A stretch of 64,000 nt of DNA, from positions 1,842-65,841 of the forward strand of contig WFNO01000066.1 of the NCBI GenBank assembly GCA_015488555.1, given 5' to 3'. Position 1 is the stretch's first letter. Each line of letters begins with the position of its first letter. The position numbers and the translations under genes are program-made. The DNA comes from Gammaproteobacteria bacterium (GTDB lineage Bacteria > Pseudomonadota > Gammaproteobacteria > SZUA-140). Positions 6,589 through 24,452 of this stretch are shown one piece after another. A model generated the notes under the pieces. That model ran no database searches and was not told where the DNA came from. It was given only the letters and a program-made list of their open reading frames with translations.

Positions 6589-7077
6589 ATGAATTTCTTC
6601 CGTCTCCTGCTGGTCCTGTTCCTCACCGTCCCCCTGGTGGAGATCTATCTCCTCATCAAGGTGGGGAACTTCATCGGTGCCCTGCCCACCGTCTTCCTGG
6701 TAGTGTTCACCGCCGTGGTGGGCGTGGTGCTGCTGCGCCTGCAGGGCTTCGCCACCATGCACCGCGTACAGGCCATGCTGGCCCGGGGCGAGATCCCCGC
6801 CGTGGAGATGCTGGAAGGCGTGGCCTTGCTCGTCAGCGGAGCCCTGCTCCTGACGCCGGGCTTCTTCACGGACACCATCGGCTTCCTGTTGTTGGTGCCT
6901 CCCCTGCGCCGGCGTCTCATCCTGTGGCTCATCGAACGCAGTTTCTTCGGCGGCATGCCGCCCGGTCCTCCTCCCGGTCCTCCTCCCGGTCCTCCTCCCG
7001 GAGCCCGTCCGGATTCCCGGGCCGGATCCCACGACCCGCGCACCATCGAGGGCGAGTTCTGGCGGGACCGGGACTGA
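6589..7077 (+). CDS. fxsA: FxsA-family cytoplasmic membrane protein
   Basis: 162 aa with two N-terminal TM helices and the FxsA core LLVPPLRRRL. SD GGGAGA lies upstream. The C-terminus holds PPGPPPGPPPGPPPG. Confidence 0.8.
   Translation: MNFFRLLLVLFLTVPLVEIYLLIKVGNFIGALPTVFLVVFTAVVGVVLLRLQGFATMHRVQAMLARGEIPAVEMLEGVALLVSGALLLTPGFFTDTIGFLLLVPPLRRRLILWLIERSFFGGMPPGPPPGPPPGPPPGARPDSRAGSHDPRTIEGEFWRDRD
6961..6999. repeat. 12-bp tandem repeat (cccggtcctcct, about 3.3 copies) encoding (PPGP)n in the FxsA tail
   Basis: Seen directly in the sequence. Approximate coordinates. Confidence 0.8.
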
Positions 7078-7164
7078 GGACAGGGAACGGAGGTCGGAGG
7101 ACAGAAAGGGAAGGCGCGATATTACAGCCTTTGAATTCCGCTCTCTGTCCTCCGTCTTCTGCCC

Positions 7165-9078
7165 TCAGTCCTCCGCCCTCCGAGCCCGTAGACCATTGGC
7201 CACCGCCAGCAGCTCGCTGGCCTCGTGCACCAGCACGGCGAAGGTCACCGAGATGAAGCCACCCACACCGGCGGGGATGAGCACCATGAGCACGGCGATG
7301 GAGAAGACGATGTTCTGCAGGCTCACCCGGCGCGCCTTGCGCCCCAGGCGCATGGCCTCCAGGAGCTTGGCCAGGTCGTCGGCCATGAGAGCGATGTCCG
7401 CCGCCTCGATGGCGGCATCGGTGCCCGCCGCGCCCATGGCCACGCCGCAGGTGGCGGCGGCCAGGGCCGGGGCGTCGTTGACGCCGTCGCCCACCATCAG
7501 GACCGGGCCCTCCCGGCCCAGGGCCTCCACGGCCGCGACCTTGTCTTCGGGCCTGAGGCCGGCGCGCACGTCGTCGATGCCCAGTTGCCGGGCGATGCGC
7601 CGCGCCGTGGCCTCGTTGTCTCCGGTGAGCATCACGGTACGAATCCCCAGCGCATGCAGGCCGGCGATCACCTGCGGGGCGTTCTCGCGCAGCACGTCCT
7701 GCAGGGCGAGGATCCCGATGATACGCTGCCGGTTACCCACCAGGACTACGGTCTTGGCCTCTTCCTGCCGGCGGCGGATGATCTCCGTCCAGGGCGAGAG
7801 GTCGAGTCCCAAGGACTCGAACAGATCGGGCTTGCCCAAGTACCAGACGGTGTCGCCCTCCCGGCCCTGGATGCCTGCGCCGGTCAGGGCCTGGACATCA
7901 CGCATGCCGCGAGGCGGGATGCCTTGTTCCTCGGCCCGTTGCCGGATGGCCCGGGCCAGGGGATGCTCCGAGTACTGCTCGAGCCCGGCGGCAATGGCCA
8001 GCAAGGCGGCTTCGTCGCCTTCGACGGCCGACACGTCGGTGACCCGCGGCCTGCCGTAGGTGAGCGTGCCGGTCTTGTCGAAGGCGATGGTGCGCACCTG
8101 GCCGAGGTGTTCCAGATGGGCGCCGCCCTTGATGAGGATGCCGCGACGCCCGGCGCCAGCGATGCCTGCGGACATGGCGATGGGCAGGGAGATGACCAGG
8201 GCGCAGGGGGCGGCGGCCACCAGCAGCACCACCGCCCGCTCGCTCCACCAGACGGTATCCAGGCCCAGCAGCCAGGGCAGGAGTAGCATGGCCAGGGCGG
8301 AGGCCAGCACCGCCGGGCTGTAGCGCCGTCCGAAACGTTCCATCCACAACTGGGCCCGGCCCTTCTGCTCCTGGGCCTCCTCCACCAGATGGATGATGCG
8401 CGCCAGGGTGTTGTCGGCGAAGCCCGCCGTGGCCTCCACGGTGAGCACGCCCTGGCCGTTGATGCTGGCTGCGAACACCTTGTCGCCCGGCCCCTTGTCC
8501 ACCGGCAGGGATTCGCCCGTCACCGGTGACTCGTCCAGGCTGGATTCGCCTTCGAGGATCACGCCGTCGGTGGGCACCGATTCGCCCGGGCGCACGACGA
8601 AACGATCTCCGGGCTGGATGGTGTCGGCGGGCACGGTGACGGTCTTGCCGCCGTCCACGAGCCGGTGCGCCGTCTTGGGCGCCAGATCCAACAAAGCGCG
8701 GATGGCGCGGCGTGTGCGGGCGAAGGTCAGCTCCTCCACGCCCTCGGCGAAGGCGTACAGCACCACCAGTGCCGCGGCCTCCTCCCACAAGCCGAGAATA
8801 CCGGCGCCGAGGGTGGCCGCCCCCATGAGGATCTCGATGCCGACGGCCCGTTCGCGGAACAGATCCTCGAGGCCTTCCCGCGCCCAGTACCAGGCCCCCA
8901 GCGGGATGGCCAACCAGTAGGCGGCCATCTCCAGAGATTCCGGAATCAGACCGGCACGCCCGCCCGCGTAGGCCCCCAGGGCCAGCAGGCCCGCCAACAA
9001 GGCGTTACGCAGGGGCGGAAAGCGCCACCAGGGCCCTGCAGCGGCCGTTTCGCCGGTGCTGCAGCCGTCCCGGGCCAT
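7165..9078 (-). CDS. Heavy-metal-translocating P1B-type ATPase. It has no N-terminal metal-binding domain and is probably a P1B-4-like Co/Zn/Cd exporter.
   Basis: 637 aa with DKTGTLT and GDGVNDAPAL. TM motif APC and a C-terminal TM containing HEASE. No CxxC/HMA domain. Confidence 0.88.
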   Translation of the reverse strand: MARDGCSTGETAAAGPWWRFPPLRNALLAGLLALGAYAGGRAGLIPESLEMAAYWLAIPLGAWYWAREGLEDLFRERAVGIEILMGAATLGAGILGLWEEAAALVVLYAFAEGVEELTFARTRRAIRALLDLAPKTAHRLVDGGKTVTVPADTIQPGDRFVVRPGESVPTDGVILEGESSLDESPVTGESLPVDKGPGDKVFAASINGQGVLTVEATAGFADNTLARIIHLVEEAQEQKGRAQLWMERFGRRYSPAVLASALAMLLLPWLLGLDTVWWSERAVVLLVAAAPCALVISLPIAMSAGIAGAGRRGILIKGGAHLEHLGQVRTIAFDKTGTLTYGRPRVTDVSAVEGDEAALLAIAAGLEQYSEHPLARAIRQRAEEQGIPPRGMRDVQALTGAGIQGREGDTVWYLGKPDLFESLGLDLSPWTEIIRRRQEEAKTVVLVGNRQRIIGILALQDVLRENAPQVIAGLHALGIRTVMLTGDNEATARRIARQLGIDDVRAGLRPEDKVAAVEALGREGPVLMVGDGVNDAPALAAATCGVAMGAAGTDAAIEAADIALMADDLAKLLEAMRLGRKARRVSLQNIVFSIAVLMVLIPAGVGGFISVTFAVLVHEASELLAVANGLRARRAED

Positions 9079-9081
9079 CTC

Positions 9082-9414
9082 TCAGCCCCGGGACGGCTCT
9101 TCCTCGTCGATGGGCAAGGCGGCAAGGAGGTCGCTCACGTAGATCCAGCCCGCCAGCGGCTGGCCCGTGCGCGCGTGCTCGCGGATGAGGCATATGGCTT
9201 CGTCCACCCGCTCGTCCGCGCACACCAGCTCCAGCTTGACCTCGGTGATGACCTTCTCTCCCACCTCCACCGAATAACCCTGTTCCTTGCTGTCCAGGGC
9301 CTTGAGCATGCCCTTGACGTCGATGATGGACAGGTTCTGATAGCCGGCGTCCTTCAGGGCGCGGATGACGTCGGCGATGCGGTTGCGATGCACGAAGGCC
9401 TTGATCTCCTTCAT
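9082..9414 (-). CDS. P-II (GlnB-like) family protein associated with the czc efflux genes
   Basis: About 110 aa from the internal ATG (MKEIKAFVHRNR...), which overlaps the czcA stop. The longer version uses a GTG at 9444. It has a GlnB-like beta-alpha-beta pattern. Confidence 0.65.
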   Translation of the reverse strand: MKEIKAFVHRNRIADVIRALKDAGYQNLSIIDVKGMLKALDSKEQGYSVEVGEKVITEVKLELVCADERVDEAICLIREHARTGQPLAGWIYVSDLLAALPIDEEEPSRG

Positions 9415-12400
9415 GAGCGTTTCTCCTTGCGGGTTTCGATCCACTCGTAGATGACGGGCAAGAGGATCAGGGTCAACAGGGTGGAGGTGAAGAGCCCGCC
9501 CACCACCACGGAGGCCAGCGGGCGCTGGGTCTCGGCCCCCACGCCGCTGGACAGCAGCATGGGGATGAGGCCGAGGATGGCCACGCTGGCCGTCATCAAC
9601 ACCGGCCGCAGTCTGAGCTCGGCACCCTTGCGCACCGCCTCACTCACCGACAAACCCTTCTCCCGCAGCTCGTTGATGAAGCTGATGAGTACGATGCCGT
9701 TGAGCATGGCCACGCCGAAGACGGCGATGAAGCCGATGGCCGAGGGCACCGACAGGTACTGGCCGCTGATGTACAGGGACACCAGCCCGCCGATGGTGGC
9801 GAAGGGCACGTTGGCGATGATGAGCGTGGCGTATTTCACTGAATTGAAGGCCGTGTACAGCAGCACGAAGATGAAGAAGATGGTGAGCGGCACGATGATG
9901 GACAGGCGCTTCAGGGCGCGCTGCTGGTTCTCGAAGGCCCCGCCCCATTCGATCCAGTAGCCCGGCGGCAGCTCGATCTCTTGTTCGATTAGGGCATCGG
10001 CCTCCTTGACGAAACCGTCCACGTCGCGGCCGCGCACGTCCATCTGGATCACGGCATAGCGCTGCAACTGCTCGCGGCGGATGAAGGAATAGCCCTCCGC
10101 CACCTCCACCTCAGCCACCCGTTCCAGGGGGATGAGGGCGCCATCGGCGGTGCGCAGCGGAATCTTGCGAATAGCCTCCACGGAGGATTTGGAGGCATCG
10201 TCCAGGCGCGCCGTGATGTCGAAACGCCGCACGCCGTCCAGCAACGTGGTCACCGGCTCGTTGCCGATGCCGTTGCGCACCACGTCCAGCACCTCGTCGG
10301 CGTTCATGCCGTAACGGGCCAACTGCTCGCGGTTCACGCGGACGCGGATCTGGGGCTTGCCCACGTTGGCCTCCAGGGAGAGATCGGCCACCCCCGGTAC
10401 CCGGGCGATGACATCCTTGATCTTCTGGCTCAAGCGGTCCAGTTCCCCCAGATCCTCGCCGTAGAGCTTGGCGGCCAGGGTGGCGCGCACCCCGGAGATC
10501 AGCTCCTCCACCCGCATCTGGATGGGCTGGGTGAAGGCGATCACCGCCGTGGGCACCGTCTCTTCCAGGGTCTCGCGCATGGCGTCGGCGATCTCCTCGA
10601 TGGATCGGTTCCACGTCTCCTTGGGCGTGAGGCCGGTGTAGATCTCCATATAGTTGACGTCAGCGGTCTCACCCTTCTCGGCGCGGCCGATCATGGCGAT
10701 GGTGGTGGTCACCTCCGGAAACTCCCCCAGGGCTTGCGCGATCTTGTTGGAGATCTCGATGGACTCCTCCAGCGAGGTGGAAGGGATGGACGTGACCCGC
10801 CACATGATGGAACCTTCCTGGAGCTGGGGCATGAATTCCTTGCCCAGCAAGGGAAACAAGGCCAAACTGCCCGCCAGTAACAGACCCGCGGCGCTCACCA
10901 CCACCTTCTTGTGGTTCAAGGACCAGGCCAACACAGGCAGATAGCCACGCTTGATCCCGGCCACCAGCCAGGTGTCGCGTTCCGCCTTGGGCTTGAGCAC
11001 CAGGGCCGCCAGCACCGGGATGAGGGTGAGGGTGAGAATGAGCGAGCCGGCCATGGCGAAGCTGATGTTGAAGGCCATGGGCTTGAAGAGCTTGCCCTCC
11101 AGACCCTCGAGGGTGAACAAGGGCAAAAAGACGACGATGATGATGAGAATGGCAAAGGCGATGGGACTGGCCACTTCGCGCGCAGCGGTGAGCACCGCGG
11201 CGGTACGGTCCACTTTCTCGCCCCGCTCGCGCCACTCGGCCATGATGCGAAAGGCGTTCTCGGTCATCACCACGGCGCCGTCCACCATCATGCCGATGCC
11301 GATGGCGAGCCCCGCCAGCGACATCAGGTTGGCGGAGATACCGGCCTCTTCCATGAAGATGAAGGCGATGAGCATGGCCAAGGGCAGGGCGGCGATGACC
11401 ACGATGGCCGAGCGCAGCTCCCCCAGGAACAGGAACAGCACGATGGCCACCAGGATGGAGCCCTCCACCAGGGCCCTGACCGCGGTCTGCACCGCCTTCT
11501 CCACCAGGTCGGTGCGCTCGTAGACGGGATTGAGTTCCACCCCCTCGGGCAGGGCGTCGCGCACCACCTCCACCTTTTCCTTGACCGCATCCACCACGTT
11601 CTTGGCGTTGGTGCCGATGCGCGACAGGGCCATGCCCATCACCACTTCGCGGCCGTCACGGGTGACGGCGCCGAAGCGCAGGCCCGGTGCCTGGCGGATG
11701 GTGGCCACGTCGCGCAGGTACACGGGGGTGCCGTCCTGGACCTTGACCACGATGTTGCCGAGATCGGTCTCGTCCTGCACCAACCCCAGGCCACGCACCA
11801 GATACTGCTCGGGCCCCAGATCGATGTACTGGCCGCCCACCTGGCGGTTGTTGTTTTCCAGGACCGTGATGACATCGCGGAAGCTCAGATCGTACTTGAT
11901 GAGCTTGAGGGGTTCGATCACCACTTGGTACTGGCGTTCCTGCCCGCCCCAGGAGAGCACGTCGTCCACGCCCGGCGCAGTGCGCAGGATGAGGCGCACG
12001 GTCCAATCCTGCAGGGTGCGCAGATCCATGTCCGTGATGGCATCCTTGAGTTGCTCGTCGGCCCGCTCCAGGGTGTACCAGAACACCTGCCCCAGCCCAG
12101 AGGAATTGGGACCCATCTCCGGCGTGCCGTAGCCTTCGGGGATGCGGTCGGCCACCTCCAGCAGGCGTTCCATCACCAGGCGGCGCACGAAATAGATGTC
12201 CATGTCGTCCTCGAAGTACACCGACACGTAGGACAGCCCGAACAGACTCACGGAGCGGATCTCCTTGACCCCTTGCAGGCCAGCCATGCCGGACTCCACC
12301 GGGAAGGTGATGAGCTGTTCCACGTCCTCCGCCGCCAACCCCGGCGACTCTGTATAGATGTTGACCTGCACCGGCGTGACGTCGGGAAAGGCGTCGATGG

Positions 12401-12503
12401 GCACCGTGGTCACCGCCCGCCAACCCAGGGCCGCTACCACCAGGAAGGCGACGATCACCAGGAACTTGTAGCGCAGGGAGACTTCGACCAGTTTGTTCAG
12501 CAT
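9411..12503 (-). CDS. czcA: CzcA/CusA-family heavy-metal efflux RND transporter
   Basis: 1030 aa beginning MLNKLVEVSLRYKFLVIV. Typical HME-RND length with 12 TM helices. Confidence 0.95.
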   Translation of the reverse strand: MLNKLVEVSLRYKFLVIVAFLVVAALGWRAVTTVPIDAFPDVTPVQVNIYTESPGLAAEDVEQLITFPVESGMAGLQGVKEIRSVSLFGLSYVSVYFEDDMDIYFVRRLVMERLLEVADRIPEGYGTPEMGPNSSGLGQVFWYTLERADEQLKDAITDMDLRTLQDWTVRLILRTAPGVDDVLSWGGQERQYQVVIEPLKLIKYDLSFRDVITVLENNNRQVGGQYIDLGPEQYLVRGLGLVQDETDLGNIVVKVQDGTPVYLRDVATIRQAPGLRFGAVTRDGREVVMGMALSRIGTNAKNVVDAVKEKVEVVRDALPEGVELNPVYERTDLVEKAVQTAVRALVEGSILVAIVLFLFLGELRSAIVVIAALPLAMLIAFIFMEEAGISANLMSLAGLAIGIGMMVDGAVVMTENAFRIMAEWRERGEKVDRTAAVLTAAREVASPIAFAILIIIVVFLPLFTLEGLEGKLFKPMAFNISFAMAGSLILTLTLIPVLAALVLKPKAERDTWLVAGIKRGYLPVLAWSLNHKKVVVSAAGLLLAGSLALFPLLGKEFMPQLQEGSIMWRVTSIPSTSLEESIEISNKIAQALGEFPEVTTTIAMIGRAEKGETADVNYMEIYTGLTPKETWNRSIEEIADAMRETLEETVPTAVIAFTQPIQMRVEELISGVRATLAAKLYGEDLGELDRLSQKIKDVIARVPGVADLSLEANVGKPQIRVRVNREQLARYGMNADEVLDVVRNGIGNEPVTTLLDGVRRFDITARLDDASKSSVEAIRKIPLRTADGALIPLERVAEVEVAEGYSFIRREQLQRYAVIQMDVRGRDVDGFVKEADALIEQEIELPPGYWIEWGGAFENQQRALKRLSIIVPLTIFFIFVLLYTAFNSVKYATLIIANVPFATIGGLVSLYISGQYLSVPSAIGFIAVFGVAMLNGIVLISFINELREKGLSVSEAVRKGAELRLRPVLMTASVAILGLIPMLLSSGVGAETQRPLASVVVGGLFTSTLLTLILLPVIYEWIETRKEKRS

Positions 12504-12515
12504 GATCGTCTCCCC

Positions 12516-13775
12516 TCAATGTGCATGGCCTGCGCCCATCTTGGACTTGAGCAGCAGTGCCTTGAGCACGAACACCCCCTGCACCACGATCTCGTCGCCC
12601 ACCGCCAGGCCGCTGCGGATCTCGGTCCAATCGCCCAGGGTGACGCCGGTCTCCACCGGCTGGGGATGCAGTTCTTCTCCCTCCACCTTGAACACCGTGG
12701 ATGAACCCTCCATGAGAATGACCGCCGCGCGCGGCACCACCACCAGGGGCTCGGTCTGCGCGGTCTCCAGGGCCACCTCCACGAACTGGCCCGGATGGAA
12801 CAAATCGTCGCGATTGTCCACCTCCACGCGCACCGACAGGGTCCGGGTGGTCTCGTCCAAACGGTGGTGGCGCTGCACCACCCGCCCGCTCACCCAGGCC
12901 GTGCCGCCGTCCGGCCGTACCCGGGCTGCAGTACCCTCACGGATACGAGTGGCCAGAACGGGTGGCAACTGGGCCTCCACCCAGAGGGTGGATTCGTCGC
13001 TGATCTCGAACAGCACCCGGCCCGGCTCGATGAATTCCCCCACCACGAACTCGTCCCGGATCACGGTGCCGTCCTGGGGAGCGAGCAGTTTGAATTCTCC
13101 GGTGGCGCGGGAGGCATCGCCGTGTTGCAACAGGGCCTTGATCTGGGCGGGGGTCATGCCGTAGGCCTGCACCCGGGCATAGGCCTGCTGGCGGGCCACC
13201 TGGGCGGCGATGTAGCGTTTTTCCGAGACCACTTTGCGCCCCAGCTTCTTCACCCGCTTCCATTCCACATCGGCCTCTAGCAGGCTGCCCTGGGCCTCGG
13301 CCATGGCCACGCTGGAGAGCGTCACCAGGGGCTGGCCCTTCTTCACCTGCTCGCCCAGCTTGGCATGGCGAGCGATGATCTGGGCGCTGATGCGAGGGGT
13401 CACCTGGGCGGTGCGATAGGCGTTGAGTTCCACCTCACCCGGTGCCATGAACTCCTCGCTCAAGGGGCGGCGCTCCACGCGGCCGGTGAGCACGCCATTG
13501 GCCTGGCGCTGGCGGGCGTCCATGCGCAACGTCCCTTCCTCGTGGCCCTCTTCCTCGTGCGCGTGTCCCTCGCCACCATTGCCGTCATGTCCTGCTTCAC
13601 CGGCCTCGTGGTCGTGATCCGCCTCATCCGCCGCTGTGGCAGTGGTTTGCTCGCGCTCGTGATCGTGATCGCCTTCGTCGGCCAGCGCTGGCACACCCCA
13701 TAGCAACAGCCACAGCGGAAACACCAGTCCCAGCATCACCGGGCGTATCGCCTTCTTCCGAAAACCTTCTCTCAT
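12516..13775 (-). CDS. czcB: Efflux RND periplasmic adaptor (membrane fusion protein), CzcB-like, with a His-rich N-terminal region
   Basis: Internal Met (MREGFRKKAIRPVMLGLVF...) sits just after the czcC stop. The HlyD-like fold carries a DHDHE/HAHEEEGHEE stretch. Confidence 0.85.
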   Translation of the reverse strand: MREGFRKKAIRPVMLGLVFPLWLLLWGVPALADEGDHDHEREQTTATAADEADHDHEAGEAGHDGNGGEGHAHEEEGHEEGTLRMDARQRQANGVLTGRVERRPLSEEFMAPGEVELNAYRTAQVTPRISAQIIARHAKLGEQVKKGQPLVTLSSVAMAEAQGSLLEADVEWKRVKKLGRKVVSEKRYIAAQVARQQAYARVQAYGMTPAQIKALLQHGDASRATGEFKLLAPQDGTVIRDEFVVGEFIEPGRVLFEISDESTLWVEAQLPPVLATRIREGTAARVRPDGGTAWVSGRVVQRHHRLDETTRTLSVRVEVDNRDDLFHPGQFVEVALETAQTEPLVVVPRAAVILMEGSSTVFKVEGEELHPQPVETGVTLGDWTEIRSGLAVGDEIVVQGVFVLKALLLKSKMGAGHAH

Positions 13776-13777
13776 CG

Positions 13778-15085
13778 TCACATTCCTCCTTCGCCGCCGG
13801 CAGCGTGCGCTGCGGCTTCCTGTGCAGGGCCCACTTCTCCGAATCCCAACCAGCTCAGGACCTGGCCCGAAGCCGCCAGCCAGTTCACCCATGCGGACCA
13901 GGCCTCGGCCTCCAACTCGACGGCGGCCAACTCGGTATTCAGGGTTTGTTGCAATTGCACCAGATATTCCGTGGTATTGATCTCACCGCTCTCCCACAGT
14001 CGTTGCAGCAGTTTCACCCGGCCCTGCAGACTGGGCCGGCCGCTGCGCTCCCAATCCACCAGTGCCTGGCGAGTCAGGCGATAGCGGTCCGCCGCCGCCG
14101 CCATGGCCGCCCACACGCGCCGGCGCAGGTTGCGGCTGTCGGCCTCGCTGCGCCGGGCCTCGGCGGCGGCGGCCTCCACCTCGGCCCGGAAGGGATTGCG
14201 CACGAATAGGGGAATGGTGAGCGTGAGACCGATCAGCGAATCCTCCTCCTCCCGGCCGCCGCGCAGGCCCAGAGTGGGATCGGGACGGCGCTCGCGGCGC
14301 GCCAGCTCCACCCCCGCGCGGGCCGCCCGGCTCAAGGCCAGCGCCTCGCGCAGCCGGGGATGGACCGCCAGCAGGGTCTCCGAAGGCTGCGCTGCGTGAG
14401 CGGGGGGCAACGCCGGCAAGTGTGGCCAGGACGCAGGCACCCGGGAGACCAGGGCACGCAGATTGGCCTCCGCTTCCGCCAAGGCCGAAGCACGACCCGC
14501 CGCAGCCATGCGCGCCTCGCTCAGGGCGAGACGGGCCAGATCCACGTCGCTCTGACCCACGTCGCCAGCGGCGAAACGGCGCTGGGCCAGTTGCAGGAAA
14601 TCCTCCAGCAAAGCTACCCGGCGCTGGGCCAGGCGGGCGAGGCGCTCTCCCGTGTGATAGCGGCTCAGGGCGTCCAATACTTCCCGCGCCACCTGCTGGC
14701 GTACCTGGTCATGGGCCGCACGGGCAGCGCGCATCTCCGAGTTACCACGCTCGTGGCGGGCTTCTCGCTTGTCCGCCCAATCGATGGTCTGACTCAATCC
14801 GAGGGAAGTGGTATTGACGCCGGTGCGCTCGGCATCCAACTCCAACTCCGGGTTGTAGAGCGGGCGTCCCGCGGCACGAGCACGGGCCTGCGCCGCTACC
14901 AGGGCCGCCTCCGCCGCGCGCACCTCCGGGTGCTCGGCCAGCACTTCGTCCACCAGCGTCGGCAATAAGGAAGACGCCGAAATCGAAGAGGAAGCCAGCA
15001 CAGACGCGGGCGCAGCGGTAATCGCTTGCACATACAGCGACCATACGAAAAACAAAACGATGAAACTCAAATTCCTGAAGGACAT
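13778..15085 (-). CDS. czcC: TolC-family outer-membrane efflux protein, CzcC-like
   Basis: 435 aa with a signal peptide and two OEP repeats. Confidence 0.85.
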   Translation of the reverse strand: MSFRNLSFIVLFFVWSLYVQAITAAPASVLASSSISASSLLPTLVDEVLAEHPEVRAAEAALVAAQARARAAGRPLYNPELELDAERTGVNTTSLGLSQTIDWADKREARHERGNSEMRAARAAHDQVRQQVAREVLDALSRYHTGERLARLAQRRVALLEDFLQLAQRRFAAGDVGQSDVDLARLALSEARMAAAGRASALAEAEANLRALVSRVPASWPHLPALPPAHAAQPSETLLAVHPRLREALALSRAARAGVELARRERRPDPTLGLRGGREEEDSLIGLTLTIPLFVRNPFRAEVEAAAAEARRSEADSRNLRRRVWAAMAAAADRYRLTRQALVDWERSGRPSLQGRVKLLQRLWESGEINTTEYLVQLQQTLNTELAAVELEAEAWSAWVNWLAASGQVLSWLGFGEVGPAQEAAAHAAGGEGGM

Positions 15086-15151
15086 GAATCCACCCTTCCT
15101 GCAACAGATGCTTCACCACTGCCCTAGACAGCGGTCCCGGGAAAGGAGGAT

Positions 15152-15484
15152 TCAGATGCGAGGCGGTTTGGTACCAACCTCAGGATGATAGGAAACCAGG
15201 ACGCGCCAGTAACCCGGCAATTGGAAAACCGGCTGTGTGGTCAGTGCTAGAGCACCGTCGAAGGCCAAGCCCAGAAGATGGGCAGAACCATGACAATAAT
15301 GATCGTGCAAGAATTCACCGCTGCTGAAATCGATTCCGGAATCGGTGCTATCGGCGGATTGCACGAGCGAAGCTGCGACCACCTGCCCATCCGCCAGCAG
15401 GCCTGGGTGGTTGTCCCAAGCCCAAGCCAGGGAAGAGGCCAGGATGCTGGACAACAACAGGACGAGAGTGAACCGTTTGATCAT
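15152..15484 (-). CDS. Small secreted protein in the CzcI position. It carries an HDHYCH motif.
   Basis: Internal Met gives about 110 aa beginning MIKRFTLVLLLSSILASSLAWA. It lies directly upstream of czcC on the same strand, as czcI does in czcNICBA. Confidence 0.5.
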   Translation of the reverse strand: MIKRFTLVLLLSSILASSLAWAWDNHPGLLADGQVVAASLVQSADSTDSGIDFSSGEFLHDHYCHGSAHLLGLAFDGALALTTQPVFQLPGYWRVLVSYHPEVGTKPPRI

Positions 15485-15664
15485 GCCTCGCTCCGCGGCG
15501 ACGTGATTTCGCCGTGAGTATAACAGCCTTATCGCACGAACGTCATATCGGATGACTCGTTCCTTCCCTTGAACGAGCAATGGAAACGGGATCGGAGTGC
15601 TTACACTCCGACCCCATCGATTTTGTCGATTCTGTCATCTGACATCTATCATCTGACATCTGGG

Positions 15665-16282
15665 TCATTTCGCCGTATGCATGAACGCCGCCAGCAGCAC
15701 CGCGGCATCCCGCAAGCGCGTGGCGAAGACCCGCGTGGGCTTGTCACCACCGACAGCGGCCTCGGCCCTGTTCACCAGATCAGCCACGCTCAAGCCCTCA
15801 TAGCCCTCGATGAAACCCTTGCCCACGGTGCCTTCGAATTCCGGAATGTATTTCTCGCTCAAGGCGGTGAGAGCCACTTTGGTGACCTTGCCTTCGGCAT
15901 CCAGGCCCACGCCCACCGCCAGATCGCCGTGGCGATAGCCGGCCTTGAGGATGATGGCGCCACCGGCGATCCGACCATCGCTGCGGTCCTTGGCCAAATA
16001 ATAGGTGTAGAGGGACTCGTCCAGATCCACGCCGTAGGTCCGTTCCGCCCACTCGGCGCCCTCGTCGCTGAGGCGTTGTTTGCGCTTGACGATCTTGAAA
16101 TTGCCCCCGGCCGGAAGCATGGCGCGCAGGGCTTCCTTTTGCTTGAGGAAATGCACCAGCGGCCCGCCATGGCCCTTGTGCGCCAGGGCTGGCGCTGCCC
16201 AGCCACCGGCCACCAGTAGGGCGGCCAGCAGAAAGACTACTCCTCGTGTATCGAACCGGAAACCTCGAATCATGCTGCTCAT
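15665..16282 (-). CDS. Periplasmic protein with an FMN-binding-like (FMN_bind) domain
   Basis: Internal Met (MSSMIRGFRFDTRGVVFLLAALLVAGGWAAPALA) gives a signal peptide. The core IILKAGYRHGDLAVGVGLDAEGKVTKVALT...EFEGTVGKGF fits the FMN_bind pattern. Confidence 0.55.
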   Translation of the reverse strand: MSSMIRGFRFDTRGVVFLLAALLVAGGWAAPALAHKGHGGPLVHFLKQKEALRAMLPAGGNFKIVKRKQRLSDEGAEWAERTYGVDLDESLYTYYLAKDRSDGRIAGGAIILKAGYRHGDLAVGVGLDAEGKVTKVALTALSEKYIPEFEGTVGKGFIEGYEGLSVADLVNRAEAAVGGDKPTRVFATRLRDAAVLLAAFMHTAK

Positions 16283-16385
16283 TTGCTGCCTCCTCGTTCG
16301 GGGTACGGCCGCCACTGTCCGGCAGGCGGCCGTGGTGTACGAAATGGCCGGCCGGGGAAGGGAGTTGCGCTCCCCTGCCCGCCGG

Positions 16386-17165
16386 TCAGGGCATGTCGCG
16401 GGCACGCACCCAAATGATCGCACCCACGTGGAGCGGATAGGCCTTGCCCTTGTGCTCCATGGTACGGCTCTGGTCCACCAGGGCGGAGAAGCCCCACCAG
16501 CCGGCACGGGGCATGGCATAGGTGAACACACCATTGGCATCCGCCTTGACCACCTGGGTGATGAAGGGATCGGCGGGCGCGCGGGCGCTGCCGTCCTGGT
16601 TGTAATACTCCACCACCACGCGGGCGAAGGGCACGGGTTTGCCATTCAGCTTGACCACGCCCTGGAAGACGTTGTTCGTCCACAGGCCATAGGGACGGGT
16701 GAGCGGTACGATCTCGGCCTCCAGGCCCAGCTCGCGATCCCAACCCTCTTCCAGGCCGAAGGTGTTCACCACCACCTTGGTGTACTGGACGAGGAAGATC
16801 TCCTCGGCCTCGTCCCAAAAGACCTCGGGCACCACGTAGAAGATGTGATCGCCCGGCTTGCGGAACTTGTAACGCAGCGTGTAGGCCGGCAACAACTCAC
16901 CCTGGCGGTCCCGCACCTGCACCGGCTGCAGGCGTGGCAGCAGGTCCTGGTCGCGGCCGGCCACCCACACGCCCACGCGCCGGGGCTTGGCCATGGGCAC
17001 GCCCAGGTCCTCGAAGGGATGGGTGAACCGGATCTCCAGGTCTACGGCGCGCCGCTCTTCATGGGTCACCACGTCGTCTGACGGGATGAGCAACTGGTAA
17101 TGGGCCATGGCCGGCGAGGATACGCCGGCCATGGCCCCCAACAGAATGGCGAGCACGCGCCGCAC
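16386..17165 (-). CDS. DUF4198-like periplasmic (transthyretin-like) protein
   Basis: The putative GTG start gives MRRVLAILLGAMAGVSSPAMA|HYQLLIPSDD. The HYQL start and beta-rich body are typical of DUF4198 proteins. The family assignment is from memory. Confidence 0.55.
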   Translation of the reverse strand: MRRVLAILLGAMAGVSSPAMAHYQLLIPSDDVVTHEERRAVDLEIRFTHPFEDLGVPMAKPRRVGVWVAGRDQDLLPRLQPVQVRDRQGELLPAYTLRYKFRKPGDHIFYVVPEVFWDEAEEIFLVQYTKVVVNTFGLEEGWDRELGLEAEIVPLTRPYGLWTNNVFQGVVKLNGKPVPFARVVVEYYNQDGSARAPADPFITQVVKADANGVFTYAMPRAGWWGFSALVDQSRTMEHKGKAYPLHVGAIIWVRARDMP

Positions 17166-17181
17166 CAGACCACCCCACCGC

Positions 17182-18264
17182 TCAGTCGAGGTGTTCGTGG
17201 GTAGGGCCAGCCTCGCCGCCACCCAGTGCATAGCTGATGCCCAGACTCCAGCGATATTTCTCGTCGTTGGATATACCGCCCAGGTTCTGATAGACGGGAT
17301 AGGAGAAGTTGCCATAGGCGACGATGCTGCGGTTGAGCTTGAAATTAATGCCTGGCGAGAAATAGACCACGTCACCGCCGCTGTTCTTCTTGAGTTCGCC
17401 ATCTTCATTGTCTTTCTTCGCAAAGATGCCGTTGAGTTCCACCACCGGCGTGATCCAGGCATGGTGATTGTAACTCAGGGCCACATCCGCCTGCCAGGAA
17501 TTGCCGCTGCGGAAATTGTTGGCACCGGGACCGTTGACGCGTAGTATCCAGTCGGCATCCAGGGCCAGCTTGTCCGTGAGGTGGCCGCTGTAGGCGATAC
17601 CAGTCTGGACCGTGAAGGCACCGCTGCCCGGCTGGTTGTGGGTACCCAGCACCTCGTCCTGGCCGGTATACCGGTTCTTGTCGGTCTTGTTGGTGAACTT
17701 GCCGGTGGGCATGAGCAACCCAAACAGCCCTGCCCATTGGTGATTGCCGTCGTTGTAGAAGCGATAGCGGGCCATGAGCAGGGTGTCCCCCCAGCCCGGC
17801 GACTCGTCCGTCTCCGAGATACAGATCGGATCCAGGTTGTCCAGAATCCCATCACCGTTAGTATCAAAACAGGCCATGGCCTGACCATCACCGTTGTCCT
17901 TGAAGCCCTGGAAATTGTTGTACTGGGTCATGATGGCCAGATCGATGTCCTCGGCCACCGGAATGCCGATCTGGATGAAATAGGCGTCCTCCCGGGAATG
18001 CTGGTGGACGTCCTCGCCGCGCGCCCGGAAGTCCACCATCTCCTGGTCCGAGAACAGCTCATAGCGGCGCGCATCCCAGCGCAGGCCGATGACCACGTCT
18101 TCCACGATGCCGGCACCCACCGCATTGATGCTGCCGGAACCACCGCCGCGAATGGATTCGCCATGCGCGAAGGCCGTATTGTGAACCAACAACAGTGAGG
18201 CCCCTCCCATGGCCAACAATGCCACTGCCTTGGACAGAGATTGCGAGTGTTTGGATTGCTTCAT
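17182..18264 (-). CDS. Secreted beta-rich protein, a putative outer-membrane channel or porin
   Basis: 360 aa with signal peptide ...VHNTAFA|HGE, SD AGGAGA and alternating hydrophobic beta-strand patterning (RYRWSLGISYAL). No identifiable family. Confidence 0.55.
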   Translation of the reverse strand: MKQSKHSQSLSKAVALLAMGGASLLLVHNTAFAHGESIRGGGSGSINAVGAGIVEDVVIGLRWDARRYELFSDQEMVDFRARGEDVHQHSREDAYFIQIGIPVAEDIDLAIMTQYNNFQGFKDNGDGQAMACFDTNGDGILDNLDPICISETDESPGWGDTLLMARYRFYNDGNHQWAGLFGLLMPTGKFTNKTDKNRYTGQDEVLGTHNQPGSGAFTVQTGIAYSGHLTDKLALDADWILRVNGPGANNFRSGNSWQADVALSYNHHAWITPVVELNGIFAKKDNEDGELKKNSGGDVVYFSPGINFKLNRSIVAYGNFSYPVYQNLGGISNDEKYRWSLGISYALGGGEAGPTHEHLD

Positions 18265-18370
18265 TTCGTTCTCCTAAGTCATTGGGTTAGTTTAAATGAC
18301 GTCGATGTATCGGACCGGAAAGCGCATCCCAGCACACTCCGTCGTAGATTCCCACAGTTTCATCTCATTC

Positions 18371-18390
18371 TTATTACGTAATAATTATTA
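18371..18390. promoter_or_regulatory. Overlapping AT-rich perfect palindromes (TTATTACGTAATAA and TAATAATTATTA). This is a candidate metalloregulator operator in the divergent promoter region.
   Basis: Both palindromes are exact and sit in a 434-bp GC-rich intergenic region between the secreted-protein gene and the His-rich gene. Approximate coordinates. Confidence 0.45.
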
Positions 18391-18698
18391 ATCATACCGC
18401 ATACCCATTGCACGCGCAAGACCCCGGGACCGTTTGGAACCGGCGCTGAAAACGGGCACGTGGCTTCGCCGTTATCGGCGGCAGTCTTGAAATCTTGCAT
18501 ATGGCAAATGGCCAACAGTCCCCGTGCTCGAGATGTTCCGGAAATCGAGATGCAATCGGAACACCCCGGTGTTAAAGTCGGCGGGCACGATGCCGAAACA
18601 GCGGTGGGCGGCGGCCCAGCGCCCGATCGCATCCTGGCCTGCCCTTTGCGTGGCATTCGTCCCCGTAAACAACAAACCAACCCTGAAGGAGAACGCGA

Positions 18699-18971
18699 AT
18701 GGAAGGTCCACACAAGCATAGCCATCAGCACGAGCACGAACATCGCCACGGCGAGCACGAACACCCCCACACCCATGCCGACGGCACCACCCACAGCCAT
18801 CCCCACGCCCATATCCACAGTCACACCCACGTGCACGAGCACGAACACCCCCACACTCACGCCGGGGGCAGCGACGACCACGATCACCAGCACAGTGAGG
18901 ACGAGCTGGCCGGGCACGACCACGATCACCCGGATCACGATCGCGAGAGTCACGAAGACCACAGCCACTGA
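18699..18971 (+). CDS. Histidine-rich metal-binding protein (about 35% His, Hpn-like)
   Basis: 90 aa, MEGPHKHSHQHEHEHRHGEHEHPHTHADG..., with an SD GAAGGAGA 7 nt upstream. No signal peptide. A rho-independent terminator follows. Confidence 0.7.
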   Translation: MEGPHKHSHQHEHEHRHGEHEHPHTHADGTTHSHPHAHIHSHTHVHEHEHPHTHAGGSDDHDHQHSEDELAGHDHDHPDHDRESHEDHSH

Positions 18972-19066
18972 AAACCGGCCGCCGTGAAGAAGGGATCCCG
19001 GTTCTGCTGACAAAAGTGTGCCAGGATTACGAAAATTTCTACTCGAAAAGCCGGTTTTTTCTCACA

Positions 19067-19094
19067 CGCCCCGCCTCACGCGGGGCGTTTTTTT
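19067..19094 (+). terminator. Rho-independent terminator after the His-rich gene
   Basis: Stem CGCCCCGC / GCGGGGCG with a CTCA loop, followed by seven T. Confidence 0.6.
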
Positions 19095-19136
19095 GGGTAT
19101 CATGGCGCCATCTCAAAGCTGACGGGAGCGCACATC

Positions 19137-19403
19137 ATGATGGAAATGGAACACGAAATGGGTGGTGGCATCTTCGACATGATGTGGATCTTCCCCATTT
19201 TGTTCTGGGTCCTCATCATCATCGGAGCCTTTTTCCTGGTCAAATGGCTGCGCCAGCCTCCCAGCAGTGAATTGTCCAGCAAATCGGCCGCCTCGCAGGC
19301 GGTAGAGAAAAGCGACGCCGCGGGCGAACCGCAAATACCGCCCCAGGGCGAGTTCAACGGCCCGCACAAGAGTAACGGCAGGAGCAGTGGAGAGGGACCG
19401 TGA
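19137..19403 (+). CDS. Small single-TM membrane protein with a Met/His-rich N-terminus (MMEMEHEMGGG)
   Basis: 88 aa with an SD GGGAG upstream and one hydrophobic helix WIFPILFWVLIIIGAFFLV. Its end overlaps the next gene's GTG start. Confidence 0.45.
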   Translation: MMEMEHEMGGGIFDMMWIFPILFWVLIIIGAFFLVKWLRQPPSSELSSKSAASQAVEKSDAAGEPQIPPQGEFNGPHKSNGRSSGEGP

Positions 19404-19768
19404 AAAAACGGGGTTGGTTCTACGGCGGCGTGGCCTTGATCCTGCTGGCCCTGACCGGGATCTTCACCCTGTCGGGCATGAACCGCCATCACGAAGGGAT
19501 GATGGGCGGCATGGGTGGGGAAGATCGTAACGACGCGCACTCCCTGGACCATCTACCGGCTGGTATGCGCCACGATCCTGCCGCCGACGTCTTCCAGGCC
19601 TCCTGTTCCGGCTGTCATGCGCCGCCGGATCCGCGCCGCTATTCGGCCGCGGAATGGCCCGCCGTGGTTGCCCGCATGCGCCAGCATATGGTGACGCAGG
19701 GCAGGCCCGTACCGCCCCCGGAGGTGCTGGGCACCGTGGTCGAGTTCCTCCAGCGACACGCCCGCTGA
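19400..19768 (+). CDS. Membrane-anchored monoheme c-type cytochrome-like protein with a Met/His-rich segment
   Basis: 122 aa from a GTG start. N-terminal TM helix, HHEGMMGGMGG region and a CSGCH (CxxCH) haem-binding motif. Confidence 0.5.
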   Translation: MKKRGWFYGGVALILLALTGIFTLSGMNRHHEGMMGGMGGEDRNDAHSLDHLPAGMRHDPAADVFQASCSGCHAPPDPRRYSAAEWPAVVARMRQHMVTQGRPVPPPEVLGTVVEFLQRHAR

Positions 19769-21626: not shown

Positions 21627-24452
21627 ATGTCCGAGGCCACGCGCCTGAGTCCCGAAATCCACCTGGGTCGAATTCTCGACCTGGCCTTCGACGAAATCTA
21701 CGTCTTCGATGCCCACACCCTGCGCTTCATCGACGCCTCGCGCGGGGCCCTGGACAACCTGGGTTACACCCTGGCGGAACTCACCCGGCTCACCCCTTTC
21801 GACATCAAGCCGGACATGACCCCGCAGTGGTGGCAGGAACTGGTACAGCCCTTGTGGAACAGCACGCGCAAACTGGCCGTGTTCCAAACCCGCCACCAGC
21901 GCAAGGACGGCAGCTGCTATCCGGTGGAATTGCGCCTGCAACTGCTGCAGGAATCAACGCCGCCGGTGTTCATCGCCATCGTCCACGACATCACCGAACG
22001 CCAGCGCAACGAAGACGCCCTGCGGGCCTCGGAGCGGCGCTACCGGGATCTCATGGAACAGTCGCCCTTCGGCATCCAGATCCACGCCCCGGACGGCCGC
22101 ATCCTCATGGTCAACTCCGCCTGGGAACGGATCACCGGCGCCCGCCTGGAAGATATGCGCGACTACAACATCCTGCAGGACCGCCAACTGGCCGAGCTGG
22201 GCATCCTGCCCTATGTGGAGCGGGCCTTCCAGGGCGAGGCCGTGGTCACCCCGCCGGTGCGATACGACACCCGCAAGACGCCGGAGGTGCCGGTGGACAG
22301 CGGCACCATCTACACCCGCACCCATCTCTATCCCATCAAGGACGAGGCGGGCAGGGTGCAGGAAGTCATTCTCATGCACGAGGACGTCAGCGATCAGATG
22401 GCCGCACAGCAGGCCCTGGCGGAGTCTCAGCGCATGCTGCGGCTGGTGCTGGACACCATTCCCGTGCGCGTGTTCTGGAAGAACCGCCAGTCGCGCTATC
22501 TGGGCTGCAACCGCCTGTTCGCCGCCGACGCCGGTCTCGACCATCCCGACGAAATCATTGGCAAGGACGATCACCAGCTCAACTGGCAGGAACAGGCGGA
22601 ACGCTTTCAGGCCGACGACCGCGCAGTGATAACCAGTGGCGAGGCCCGCCTCAACTACGAGGAAGCCCAGAGTTGGCCCGACGGTACCACCCGTATCCTG
22701 CGCACCAGCAAGATCCCCCTGCGTAACGAACGAGACGAGGTCTTCGGCGTGCTGGGTTGCTACGAGGACATCACCGAACGCAAGGCCGCCGAAGCGGCCT
22801 TGCGCGCCAGCGAACAACGCTTCCATACCCTCGCCAAAATCTCACCGGTGGGGATCTTCCGCACCGATGCCGAGGGCGGCTGCATCTACGTCAACGAGCG
22901 CTGGTGCGCCATGGCCGGCATGAAGGCCCAAGAGGCGGTGGGCAACAGCTGGGTCCGGGCCTTGCACCCCGAAGACCGGGAACGGGTCCTTCGTGAATGG
23001 CAAGAGGCTGCCGCCCGGCGCTCCTTCCACACCGAATGCCGCTTCCAGCGGCCCGATGGCACCGTCACCTGGCTCCTGGCCCAGGCGGACGCGGAATGCG
23101 ACAGCGAGGGCCGGGTGATGGGCTATGTGGGCACCATCACCGACATCACCGAACGCAAGCGCGTGGAAGAGGCCATCCAGCACATCGCCAGCGGCGTCTC
23201 CGCCCAGACCGGCGAGGCCTTCTTCCATTCCCTGGTCATCCATCTGGGCAAGCTCTTCCAGGCGGACCATGCCTTCGTGGGCCTCTACCAGGAACCGCAC
23301 CAGGTGCGCACCATCGCCGTCTGCACCCGCGGCCGCATCGCCGGCAATTTCGTCTATCCGTTAGAGGGTACCCCTTGTGCCCAACTACTGAATCGAGAGA
23401 CCTGCTACTATCCCCACGGCGTACGCCAGTTGTTCCCACGTGATCGCCTGCTACAGGAGCTGGCCATCGAGAGCTATCTGGGCACGCCCGTCATGGATCG
23501 TGCAGGGCGCCCCCTGGGGTTGATTGTCATTCTCAACTCTCGTGCCCAAGAAGACACTGCCTGGATCCATCCTATCCTAGAGATCTTCACTGCCCGCACC
23601 GCTGCCGAGCTGGAACGCCTGCAGGCCCTGGCTGAATTGGAACGCCATCGGGATTCCCTGGAAGACAGGGTACGAGAGCGCACCGAAGAGGTACGCCAAC
23701 AGGCCCGTATCATCGAGCAGGAACGCAGCGCGCTCGCCCACGCCAACCGGGAACTGGAATCCTTCGCCTACTCCGTCTCCCATGACCTGCGCGCGCCCCT
23801 GCGGGCCATCAATGGTTTTGCCCAGGCCCTGGAAGAAGATTACGGGCACCATCTGAACACTGAGGGACGCGACTACCTGCGCCGCATCCGCCGCGCCTCG
23901 GAACGCATGGGCCAGTTGATCGACGACCTGTTGATGCTCTCGCGGGTCTCGCGCCATCAGCTACGGCGGCAGCGCGTGGATCTGAGCGCCCTGGCACAGG
24001 AGGTGGCCGCCGAACTCCGGCAACTGGAGCCCCACCGTCGGGTGGCGCTGGAATTGGAATCCCATCTGACGGCCACCGGCGATCCCCTGCTCCTGCGCAT
24101 CGTGCTGGAGAACCTGCTCGGCAATGCCTGGAAATACACCCGCAAACAGCCGCACCCCCGGGTGCGCTTCGGCAGCTGCACTACCCCACAAGGCGAAACG
24201 GCCTTCTACGTACAGGACAATGGCGCTGGCTTCGACATGCGTTATGCCGACAAGCTCTTCGTCGCCTTTCAGCGCCTGCATCACCTGCACGAATACGAAG
24301 GCACCGGTATCGGCCTGGCCACGGTGGCTCGCATCGTCCAACGGCATGGCGGACGGGTATGGGCCGAGGGTGTCTGTGACCGGGGTGCCACCTTCTATTT
24401 TACCTTGAACGCCCACGACGGGGATGGCGAACATCCCGAGGAGCCACCATGA
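21627..24452 (+). CDS. Multi-PAS/PAC and GAF sensor histidine kinase
   Basis: 941 aa with repeated PAS/PAC modules (ITERK repeats), a GAF-like region, the HisKA box SHDLRAPL and HATPase motifs (DNGAGF, GTGIGLA). Confidence 0.9.

Follow-up and report, generated by a model that had tools for sequence, protein, structure and literature searches.

A putative NikR-controlled nickel-acquisition cassette upstream of a divalent-cation efflux operon in uncultured Gammaproteobacteria

To our knowledge, a few TonB-dependent receptors are the only known route of nickel across the outer membrane, it is not understood how nickel in the periplasm avoids broad-specificity resistance-nodulation-division (RND) pumps, and no partners had been assigned to the "orphan NikK" genes. 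The characterisation of DUF4198 proteins began only in 2025. DUF4198 is the counterpart of NikK in the NikKMLQO systems (PMC545781, PMC2667541), in which nikK and nikL are extra periplasmic components (Rodionov et al., PMC545781), and "orphan NikK" genes without NikMQO were noted earlier (PMC2667541). An N-terminal histidine is found in 79% of DUF4198 proteins, and one of these proteins binds Ni(II) through it with a dissociation constant of 18 nM, with Ni preferred over Cu and, in vitro, over Zn (PMC12537917). Neisseria Zcp, another DUF4198 protein, is a Zur-regulated zinc-binding buffer that is dispensable for uptake (PMC12663993). Here we describe a DUF4198 gene within a string of nine genes on the minus strand (positions 7165-18264) of a 64-kb stretch of gammaproteobacterial DNA from contig WFNO01000066.1, hereafter called the window.

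With moderate confidence, we read this locus as a cassette for nickel acquisition with a NikR-type operator in front, directly followed by a conventional heavy-metal-efflux (HME)-RND/PII/P1B-4 efflux operon that would have its own promoter. The two separately controlled units probably make up a divalent-metal homeostasis island centred on Ni/Co. The metal and its direction of transport, the binding of NikR and the limits of the transcripts are inferred from sequence, structure models and synteny. The cassette and its upstream region contain the following features, in which OMP denotes an outer-membrane protein and AF2 denotes AlphaFold2.

18699-18971, plus strand: gene of a His-rich 90-aa protein, from translation, divergent from the OMP gene
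18371-18397, minus strand: NikR-type operator GTATGAT-N13-GTAATAA, from consensus score and orthologous positions
17182-18264, minus strand: OMP, a COG4313/Phenol_MetA_deg barrel (PF13557, AF2 model, Foldseek)
16386-17165, minus strand: DUF4198 (NikK-like) periplasmic protein (PF10670), likely GTG start at 17165
15665-16282, minus strand: protein X, with an RnfG/NqrC-like fold (no Pfam match; fold and profile relatedness)

The 434-nt non-coding region upstream of the OMP gene (18265-18698) does contain the AT-rich palindromes that the original prediction had placed there. Its promoter is composed of a −35 element TTGCGC (18419-18414) and a −10 element TATGAT (18396-18391), and the NikR-type site overlaps the −10 element. 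The published NikR signals are GTATGAT-N13/14-ATCATAC (enterobacterial) and GTGTTAC-N13/14-GTAACAC (Rodionov et al., PMC545781). The window site agrees with the enterobacterial consensus at 11 of 14 positions, a score equalled in 6 of 500 intergenic shuffles. In clade A, which comprises the window, loci L011-L015 and the metagenome contigs L007 and L009, the promoter is conserved as TTGnnn-17-TATGAT, with GTATGAT-N13-(G/A)T(C/A)ATA(C/A) overlapping the −10 element; the score is 13/14 for the orthologous sites of L013 and L014, and 11/14 for those of the window, L009 and L011. In the other cassettes, a TTGACA...TACGAT promoter is surrounded by GTGTTAC-N13-GTAACAC or the reverse of this sequence, present in one to three copies (12-14/14), and NikR-type sites with N13 spacing are present upstream of nearly every cassette, with scores of 11-14/14. 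The case for NikR would thus be carried by conservation at orthologous positions and by the linked NikR genes described below. Such an operator implies repression by nickel, which would be opposite to the logic of efflux induction. Two other candidate regulators were rejected, the consensus matches in the promoter region being no better than shuffles for Fur (76/500) and for gamma-type Zur (149/500). An Rfam scan (E≤1, 6900-19400) revealed no riboswitch and only sub-threshold microRNA-like matches to a long hairpin.

In every orthologue examined, all three secreted proteins of the cassette have a predicted cleavage after AxA that exposes a histidine. The mature N-termini read A↓HGES(I/L/V)RGGG for the OMP, A↓H(F/Y)Q(M/L)(I/L)IPSD for the DUF4198 protein and A↓HKGH for X (arrow, cleavage), and in each of the three the histidine at +1 is either invariant or conserved to 90% or more. 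The DUF4198 protein matches PF10670 with 190 bits (cutoff 34, E 7.6e-56), and cleavage at SSPAMA↓HYQLL gives the mature N-terminus HYQLLIPSDD, the histidine of which is invariant in all cassette orthologues. A phmmer search against solved structures returned no relatives of this protein.

The OMP matches PF13557 with 40.9 bits (cutoff 22, E 3e-10), and its AF2 model is a 12-stranded barrel with a mean model confidence (pLDDT) of 83.6. Foldseek matched the model to the COG4313 channel 4rl8 (E 2e-11, template-modelling score 0.72 on the target) and to FapF (E about 1e-11). The mature N-terminus reads HGESIRGGGSGS; this segment is probably flexible in view of the low model confidence at residues ~34-50 (pLDDT <50 through residue 43). 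Across 47 homologues with identities as low as 23%, its AHGES-RG is conserved to at least 90%, and besides the AHGES-RGGG tail the subfamily has the conserved histidines H87, H89 and H209. We consider the OMP a candidate TonB-independent nickel channel; a literature search found no nickel role for Phenol_MetA_deg. Since distant homologues (37-50% identity) occur in unrelated settings (in a Cu-oxidase region, next to kinases, or on their own), the subfamily is not strictly tied to the cassette.

Protein X had been labelled FMN_bind in the original prediction. This label holds at the level of fold and profile, the predicted structure having the RnfG/NqrC fold and profile comparison relating X to a Pfam-FMN_bind protein with 96.9% probability (E 2e-10). 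It fails at the level of family and motif, as no FMN_bind match was obtained in Pfam or NCBIfam even at E≤10 and the [S/T]GA[S/T] motif, which is flavinylated by ApbE (bioRxiv 10.1101/2021.01.07.425746), is missing. Solved structures searched by sequence with the X profile gave no usable match. The family is rare: 33 clusters were found in 5.8 billion proteins, the precomputed Pfam annotation being empty for all 33, and the X profile matched 64 of 1.84 billion cluster representatives (30 at E≤1e-30). Two elements are invariant in the alignment: A↓HKGH(G/A)G, directly behind the signal peptide, and YRHG(D/E), which is YRHGD in the window. The flavinylation motif is absent from 33 of the 34 aligned sequences, the sole SGAT being at the non-equivalent position 89, and from the relatives at E≤1e-30 except for one SGAT at position 87. 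Among the profile matches, close relatives have HxGH[AGS]G and YxHG without a motif at the flavinylation position, while remote relatives, the true FMN_bind proteins, have TGAT or SGAT at ~150-170 (about residue 155) and are devoid of the N-terminal histidine. No ApbE gene was present in the gene lists within ±10 kb of six X relatives. Because the flavinylation motif is missing and no ApbE is listed nearby, we do not read X as a flavoprotein; it is best read as an FMN_bind-fold protein turned N-terminal-histidine metal binder, in which the flavin attachment site would have been lost and HxGH gained. X thus represents a family new here, with the FMN_bind fold, no flavin site and an N-terminal HxGH. 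A separate observation concerns the 3294-aa protein P0072, ten stretches of which match positions 8-79 of the X profile (E 2e-16).

The cassette was compared by tblastn across contigs with X relatives and across a scan of one genome per species, which gave 24 loci. The order OMP-DUF4198-(Aq_1264_TM)-X was found in these 24 species-level loci and in several metagenome contigs, from vent Gammaproteobacteria and from metagenome-assembled genomes (MAGs) of Nitrospira. DUF4198 always precedes X, and the same OMP usually precedes both. In most lineages, Aq_1264_TM (PF27139), a protein of ~215 aa with four transmembrane segments and a Met/His/Asp-rich loop MDHSQMDMGSMAGMDHG, is encoded between DUF4198 and X (L003 9307-9954, L010 9353-9988 and at least 11 other loci). 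Where present it always stands immediately before X, and it is absent from the window's clade; we regard it as a candidate inner-membrane partner or permease. In L012 (9076-12491) the genes are rearranged to DUF4198-X-small-OMP-small-OEP, with the gene of a small CCHG protein duplicated and the OMP gene moved downstream of X.

The surroundings of the cassette differ between lineages. In clade A the cassette is followed by a small gene and by genes for an outer-membrane factor (OEP), a membrane fusion protein (MFP) and an RND pump, with or without P-II and ATPase genes. In L003/L021, L016, L019, L022, L025, L026 and L030, cation diffusion facilitator (CDF) and/or RND genes are located upstream of the cassette or nearby. 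An energy-coupling factor (ECF) context, DUF4198-NikL-like-CbiM-CbiQ-CbiO-Aq_1264_TM-X, was found in L017 (genome scan) and L005 (metagenome contig). In Nitrospira L028, L031 and L034 the cassette is followed by the ATP-binding cassette (ABC) transporter context ZnuA-NikR-ZnuC-ZnuB (L031 is the same record as L001/L002), while in L023 and L032 it stands alone with a NikR gene ~3 kb away. Of the 24 species-level loci, 12 have efflux genes no more than 10 kb away, 4 have an adjacent importer and 5 have a NikR gene. NikR genes in or near the cassette occur in L001, L023, L028, L032 and L034. In L001 (10661-13933), L028 and L034, the NikR gene is located between znuA and znuC of a ZnuA-type (cluster A-I) ABC operon directly 3' of X; its position inside the operon suggests that this ZnuABC-like importer is nickel-specific.

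The three upstream genes are indeed outside the described czc systems, and a role for them as a periplasmic and outer-membrane metal-handling module is supported. The coupled uptake and efflux unit offered as a second option agrees with the cassettes, which have RND/CDF efflux genes as neighbours in 12 of the 24 loci and, elsewhere, ECF CbiMQO or ZnuABC plus NikR.

The divergent His-rich protein (18699-18971) consists mostly of His, Glu and Asp, has no signal peptide and gave no Pfam match. Orthologues in the same divergent position were found in L007, L009, L011-13, L023, L030 and L032, and the protein is a candidate cytoplasmic nickel buffer or storage protein accompanying the cassette. A second His-rich type (MxCDxTYHRHxHR...) is encoded co-directionally just upstream of the OMP gene in L016, L023, L029 and L032.

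The remaining features of the nine-gene string belong to the efflux half and to the gap before it.

15485-15664, minus strand: intergenic region between X and the small gene, with direct repeat, hairpin and promoter-like site
15152-15484, minus strand: small secreted protein, first gene of the efflux unit (no family match; position in clade A)
13778-15085, minus strand: OEP outer-membrane factor, CzcC-like (Pfam OEP, E 4e-39)
12516-13775, minus strand: MFP, CzcB-like (HlyD_D23, TIGR01730), with a His-rich N-terminal segment
9411-12503, minus strand: HME-RND pump of the CusA/CzcA family (TIGR00914)
9082-9414, minus strand: P-II-like protein of the PII-NG kind (Pfam P-II, E 5e-12)
7165-9078, minus strand: P1B-type ATPase, P1B-4-like (TIGR01525, 598 bits)

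All nine open reading frames (ORFs) are arranged in tandem on the minus strand, within 7165-18264. Hidden Markov models of Pfam and NCBIfam supported seven of the nine gene labels, and X (15665-16282) and the small gene (15152-15484) had no family match in either database even at E≤10. From the OMP gene to the ATPase gene the gaps calculated from the coordinates are 16, 103, 180, 66, 2, 12, −4 and 3 nt. The predicted co-directionality and coordinates therefore stood, and the description of all gaps as short did not apply to those of 103 and 180 nt. Of two predicted start/stop overlaps, that of czcA and the P-II gene (ATGA) was found, while czcC and czcB are 2 nt apart, with a likely czcB start at 13775. 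The gene names needed partial revision: the ATPase is P1B-4-like as proposed, the pump looks like a generic HME-RND protein more than a canonical Czc pump, FMN_bind applies to X at fold level only, and CzcI-like is a positional description.

The efflux half (czcCBA-PII-P1B-4 ATPase) is of a known, ordinary kind. In every clade-A locus its small first gene stands after X and before the OEP gene, and the protein has conserved AWAWDNH, (H/C)DHYC(C)HGxAHL and C-terminal KPPR, within clade A only. It has only 6 relatives in 5.8 billion proteins and gave no tblastn match at E≤1 against 72,556 plasmids, probably including Cupriavidus czc plasmids such as pMOL30; its likeness to CzcI is limited to the position before the OEP gene. 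The MFP scored 162 bits with TIGR01730 (cutoff 95) and the pump 1096 bits with TIGR00914 (cutoff 701). The pump is about equally close to ZneA (688 bits) and CusA (659 bits), and its transmembrane helix 4 reads AIGIGMMVDGAVVMTEN, i.e. AIG...DGA...TEN; the canonical CzcA motif of this helix is reportedly DFG-X3-DGA-X3-VEN. Plasmid relatives in Rhodanobacter, Cupriavidus and Variovorax are 67-74% identical to the pump, and both plasmid loci inspected (Rhodanobacter and Cupriavidus) have OEP-MFP-RND followed by a "P-II family nitrogen regulator". The start of the P-II gene overlaps the pump stop, and its product matches PF00543 with 46.5 bits (cutoff 25). The RND-P-II pairing occurs in L003, L011, L014, L039 and L040, and the czc-linked P-II clade is named PII-NG in a passage of PMC7726332 citing Sant'Anna 2009. 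The best solved relative of the ATPase is the P1B-4 pump sCoaT (7qbz/7qc0; 405 bits with 7qbz), compared with 364 bits for ZntA. The APC of the ATPase aligns with SPC of sCoaT, and HEASE in the last transmembrane helix aligns with HEGST. The motifs of P1B-4 ATPases are SPC, located in the helix that binds the ion, and HEGxT, located in the last helix. No N-terminal metal-binding domain was found (no HMA in Pfam, the sCoaT alignment starting at residue 26), and the enzyme is P1B-4-like with a variant motif. Between the convergent ATPase (stop 7165) and fxsA (stop 7077) genes, a hairpin of ~100 nt (7075-7174; RNA minimum free energy −72.5 kcal/mol, z −5.4) is probably a bidirectional terminator or an element like a repetitive extragenic palindrome.

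The 180-nt gap between X and the small gene contains a hairpin with a 12-bp stem including 15609-15594, followed by a short U tract, and a promoter-like ATGACG-18-TATACT with an upstream TG (extended −10) at 15546-15517. A TATACT, CATACT or TAGCAT element is found at the same place before the small gene in 7/7 clade-A loci, L009 and L011-L015 included, and T-rich terminators follow X in L014 and L015. Because of these features and the independent occurrence of the cassette elsewhere, two transcription units are favoured. A tandem direct repeat, GATGTCAGATGA x2, is located right after the X stop codon (15632-15660) and was not seen in the orthologous intergenic regions.

The original prediction had treated the nine genes as a single string, and a single nine-gene operon was rejected as the primary reading, being disfavoured by the conserved internal −10 (TATACT-like) element and by the hairpins or T-rich terminators after X; the cassette moreover has a separate promoter with a NikR-type operator. 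A version of it deserves weighing, in which the OMP, DUF4198 protein and X form a CusF-like capture and delivery module that passes excess metal to the RND pump or buffers it, all nine genes being co-transcribed under metal stress. In eight clade-A loci the genes form an uninterrupted series in one direction, with the order X-small-OEP-MFP-RND kept, a strong terminator after X was not found in the window scan, no importer gene adjoins the cassette in the window's lineage, and efflux genes lie within 10 kb in 12/24 loci, all as expected of one operon with one function. We nevertheless regard it as unlikely, since the cassette also stands alone or is joined to importers, NikR-type operators point to repression at high metal supply, the small gene has a conserved −10 element and hairpins in front of it, and in the other efflux-linked group the CDF/RND genes are upstream of the cassette's own promoter, not downstream. 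The proposal of a redox module feeding the pump was likewise not supported, as X lacks [S/T]GA[S/T] and the listed neighbourhoods contain no ApbE. X could still be a redox protein like RnfG/NqrC, with a non-covalent flavin or a redox metal, that together with a membrane partner reduces or oxidises periplasmic metal species, comparable to the PepSY-like/ApbE/DUF2271/DUF4198 clusters. Its fold and homology to FMN_bind proteins are compatible with this, the four-segment Aq_1264_TM precedes X in most loci, and DUF4198 often neighbours flavinylated DUF2271 and ApbE in 1,500 PepSY-like clusters (bioRxiv 10.1101/2021.01.07.425746). The loss of [ST]GA[ST] at a position where remote relatives retain it, the absence of ApbE, PepSY and cytochrome partners from the listed neighbourhoods, the absence of Aq_1264_TM from the window and the fact that Ni(II) uptake requires no redox step make such a role very improbable.

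Zinc starvation is a further explanation, in which the cassette would be a Zur-controlled periplasmic zinc-capture system like that of Neisseria Zcp. Zinc control was kept as a rival because the Geobacter-type Zur consensus scores as well as NikR: the AT-rich palindrome in the window agrees at 15/22 positions, with 4 of 500 shuffles equal. In addition, Zcp is Zur-regulated and zinc-binding and is the only DUF4198 protein characterised in vivo (PMC12663993), and a ZnuA/ZnuC/ZnuB-type importer is encoded after the cassette in Nitrospira. Yet a NikR gene sits inside those ZnuABC-type operons, other cassettes are joined to CbiMQO/NikL-like genes, and the conserved half-sites GTATGA/TCATAC or GTGTTAC/GTAACAC with N13 are the two published NikR signals (PMC545781). 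The DUF4198 type with N-terminal histidine also preferred Ni over Zn in vitro (PMC12537917). We consider a zinc-starvation system quite unlikely.

Several points weigh against the reading of a nickel-acquisition cassette beside a separate efflux operon. The 64-kb window has no NikR gene, nickel enzyme or inner-membrane nickel importer; a tblastn search of it for NikR, Aq_1264_TM, ZnuABC, CbiMQO, NikL-like and CDF proteins found none near the locus and only an unrelated ABC ATPase at ~38.3 kb, and CbiM/Q/O-like genes, absent beside the window DUF4198 gene, are present only in the relatives L005 and L017. The window operator is weak (11/14) and its right half-site degenerate, with 2 matches in the whole window against 0.65 expected and an equal result in 13 of 100 shuffles, which by itself is not significant, and this AT-rich palindrome is the one that agrees at 15/22 positions with the Geobacter-type Zur consensus. 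The only in vivo work on a DUF4198 protein concerns Zcp, a zinc binder that is not needed for uptake. No clear intrinsic terminator follows X in the window, only the 12-bp hairpin and short U tract, so that read-through from X into the efflux genes may occur. The efflux adjacency in half of the loci could reflect a direct functional link and not mere neighbourhood. Finally, the X family and the OMP subfamily are known from sequence, models and synteny alone, in uncultured MAGs only.

Under the nickel-acquisition reading, unit 1 (18419-15665) would comprise a sigma-70-type promoter overlapped by the NikR-type operator and the OMP, DUF4198 and X genes, accompanied by the divergent His-rich gene. 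When nickel is scarce, NikR would leave the operator, and the 12-stranded COG4313-type barrel would let Ni(II) in without TonB. The NikK-like DUF4198 protein and X may then capture periplasmic Ni(II) through their amino-terminal histidines and keep it available for an inner-membrane importer, which in relatives would be Aq_1264_TM, CbiMQO or ZnuBC and in the window's lineage is not encoded beside the cassette. In unit 2 (15546-7165), a separate promoter would be followed by the genes for the small secreted CCHG protein, for OEP-MFP-RND, for the PII-NG-like protein and for the P1B-4-like ATPase; this last enzyme would export surplus divalent cations from cytoplasm to periplasm, from where the RND pump would expel them. 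The recurrent pairing suggests selection for joint high-affinity nickel capture and broad divalent-cation efflux in metal-rich habitats. A more specific proposal, which we put forward tentatively and regard as somewhat doubtful, is that the barrel with its HGES tail, the DUF4198 protein and the HxGH protein X form a TonB-independent, NikR-controlled Ni(II) relay across the outer membrane and periplasm, set beside RND/CDF/P-type efflux so that vent bacteria hold trace nickel while expelling abundant Zn, Co and Cd. If true, this relay would be a new outer-membrane nickel route and would put the FMN_bind fold to new use as a metallochaperone.

Neither the efflux unit nor the association of DUF4198 with nickel is new. 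New here are the X family, the NikR-linked COG4313-type barrel with a His tail, the fixed cassette and its recurrent juxtaposition with efflux genes. The orphan NikK genes thereby obtain two candidate partners, a 12-stranded channel and a new family derived from RnfG/NqrC, recurrently placed beside efflux systems in metal-rich vent bacteria. The NikR-type operators offer a regulatory handle, and the N-terminal histidine common to the three proteins a simple, testable chemical hypothesis. As all members come from uncultured MAGs, the practical impact will be moderate until heterologous expression.

The remainder of the window is chromosomal housekeeping (accC, nirB, speA/speE, amtB-glnK, gltBD). 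The window is near-identical to MAG and metagenome contigs of uncultured Gammaproteobacteria, the small protein being encoded in identical form on a contig of assembly GCA_015492445.1, and a more distant relative (72% identity for X) is from a hydrothermal-vent metagenome. On the plus strand, 19137-19768 contains two small overlapping genes for an 88-aa membrane protein and a 122-aa CSGCH haem-c protein (weak Pfam DHC/Cytochrome_CBB3 matches), with a strong bidirectional terminator (19066-19088) between them and the His-rich gene. Genes flanking the cassettes of L007 and L009 encode FA_hydroxylase and VTT-domain proteins and a PAS-rich histidine kinase, next to which a single-domain response regulator is encoded. 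FA_hydroxylase and VTT genes were confirmed in the window, where the 941-aa ORF at 21627-24452 (plus strand) corresponds to the kinase by length and position only.

Compared with described systems, the DUF4198 protein resembles those of NikK/NikKMLQO, IsDUF4198 and Zcp in its strong family match, its signal peptide followed by histidine and the NikR-type site upstream, and relatives of the cassette are found in DUF4198-NikL-like-CbiM-CbiQ-CbiO operons as in NikKMLQO. Unlike NikK, it is encoded without an adjacent inner-membrane transporter and is paired with an outer-membrane barrel and X; from Zcp and IsDUF4198 it is distant, having no solved relative by phmmer. X shares with RnfG/NqrC its profile homology, an N-terminal hydrophobic segment and an extracytoplasmic location, but it fails Pfam at E≤10, has no flavin motif and no ApbE or Rnf/Nqr partners nearby, and has an invariant cleaved N-terminus HxGH[AGS]G and YxHG. 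Known COG4313 channels have been discussed for hydrophobic substrates. The window OMP is like COG4313 channels (Pput2725, 4rl8) and FapF in its PF13557 match and predicted 12-stranded barrel, and its subfamily is unlike them in the AHGES-RGGG tail, the conserved histidines and the NikR-type operators upstream. As a TonB-independent, metal-regulated channel it would have a functional analogue in MnoP (Mn; PMC6011978), and the metal porin RopAe (Cu) is a further one. Like the secreted proteins of the PepSY-like/ApbE/DUF2271/DUF4198 clusters (Meheust et al. 2021), the window DUF4198 protein is encoded beside a small extracytoplasmic protein of a flavin-binding lineage; unlike these clusters, the window has no PepSY, ApbE or DUF2271, the partner X has lost the flavinylation site, and regulation looks nickel- and not iron-dependent. 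The efflux half corresponds to czcCBA with PII-NG and a P1B-4 ATPase (CzcP/sCoaT type) in OEP-MFP-RND, in the P-II gene overlapping the pump stop and in the ATPase gene directly after it; it differs in a pump equidistant from ZneA and CusA with AIG...DGA...TEN in transmembrane helix 4, in an ATPase with APC and not SPC, and in a small leading protein unrelated to named families.

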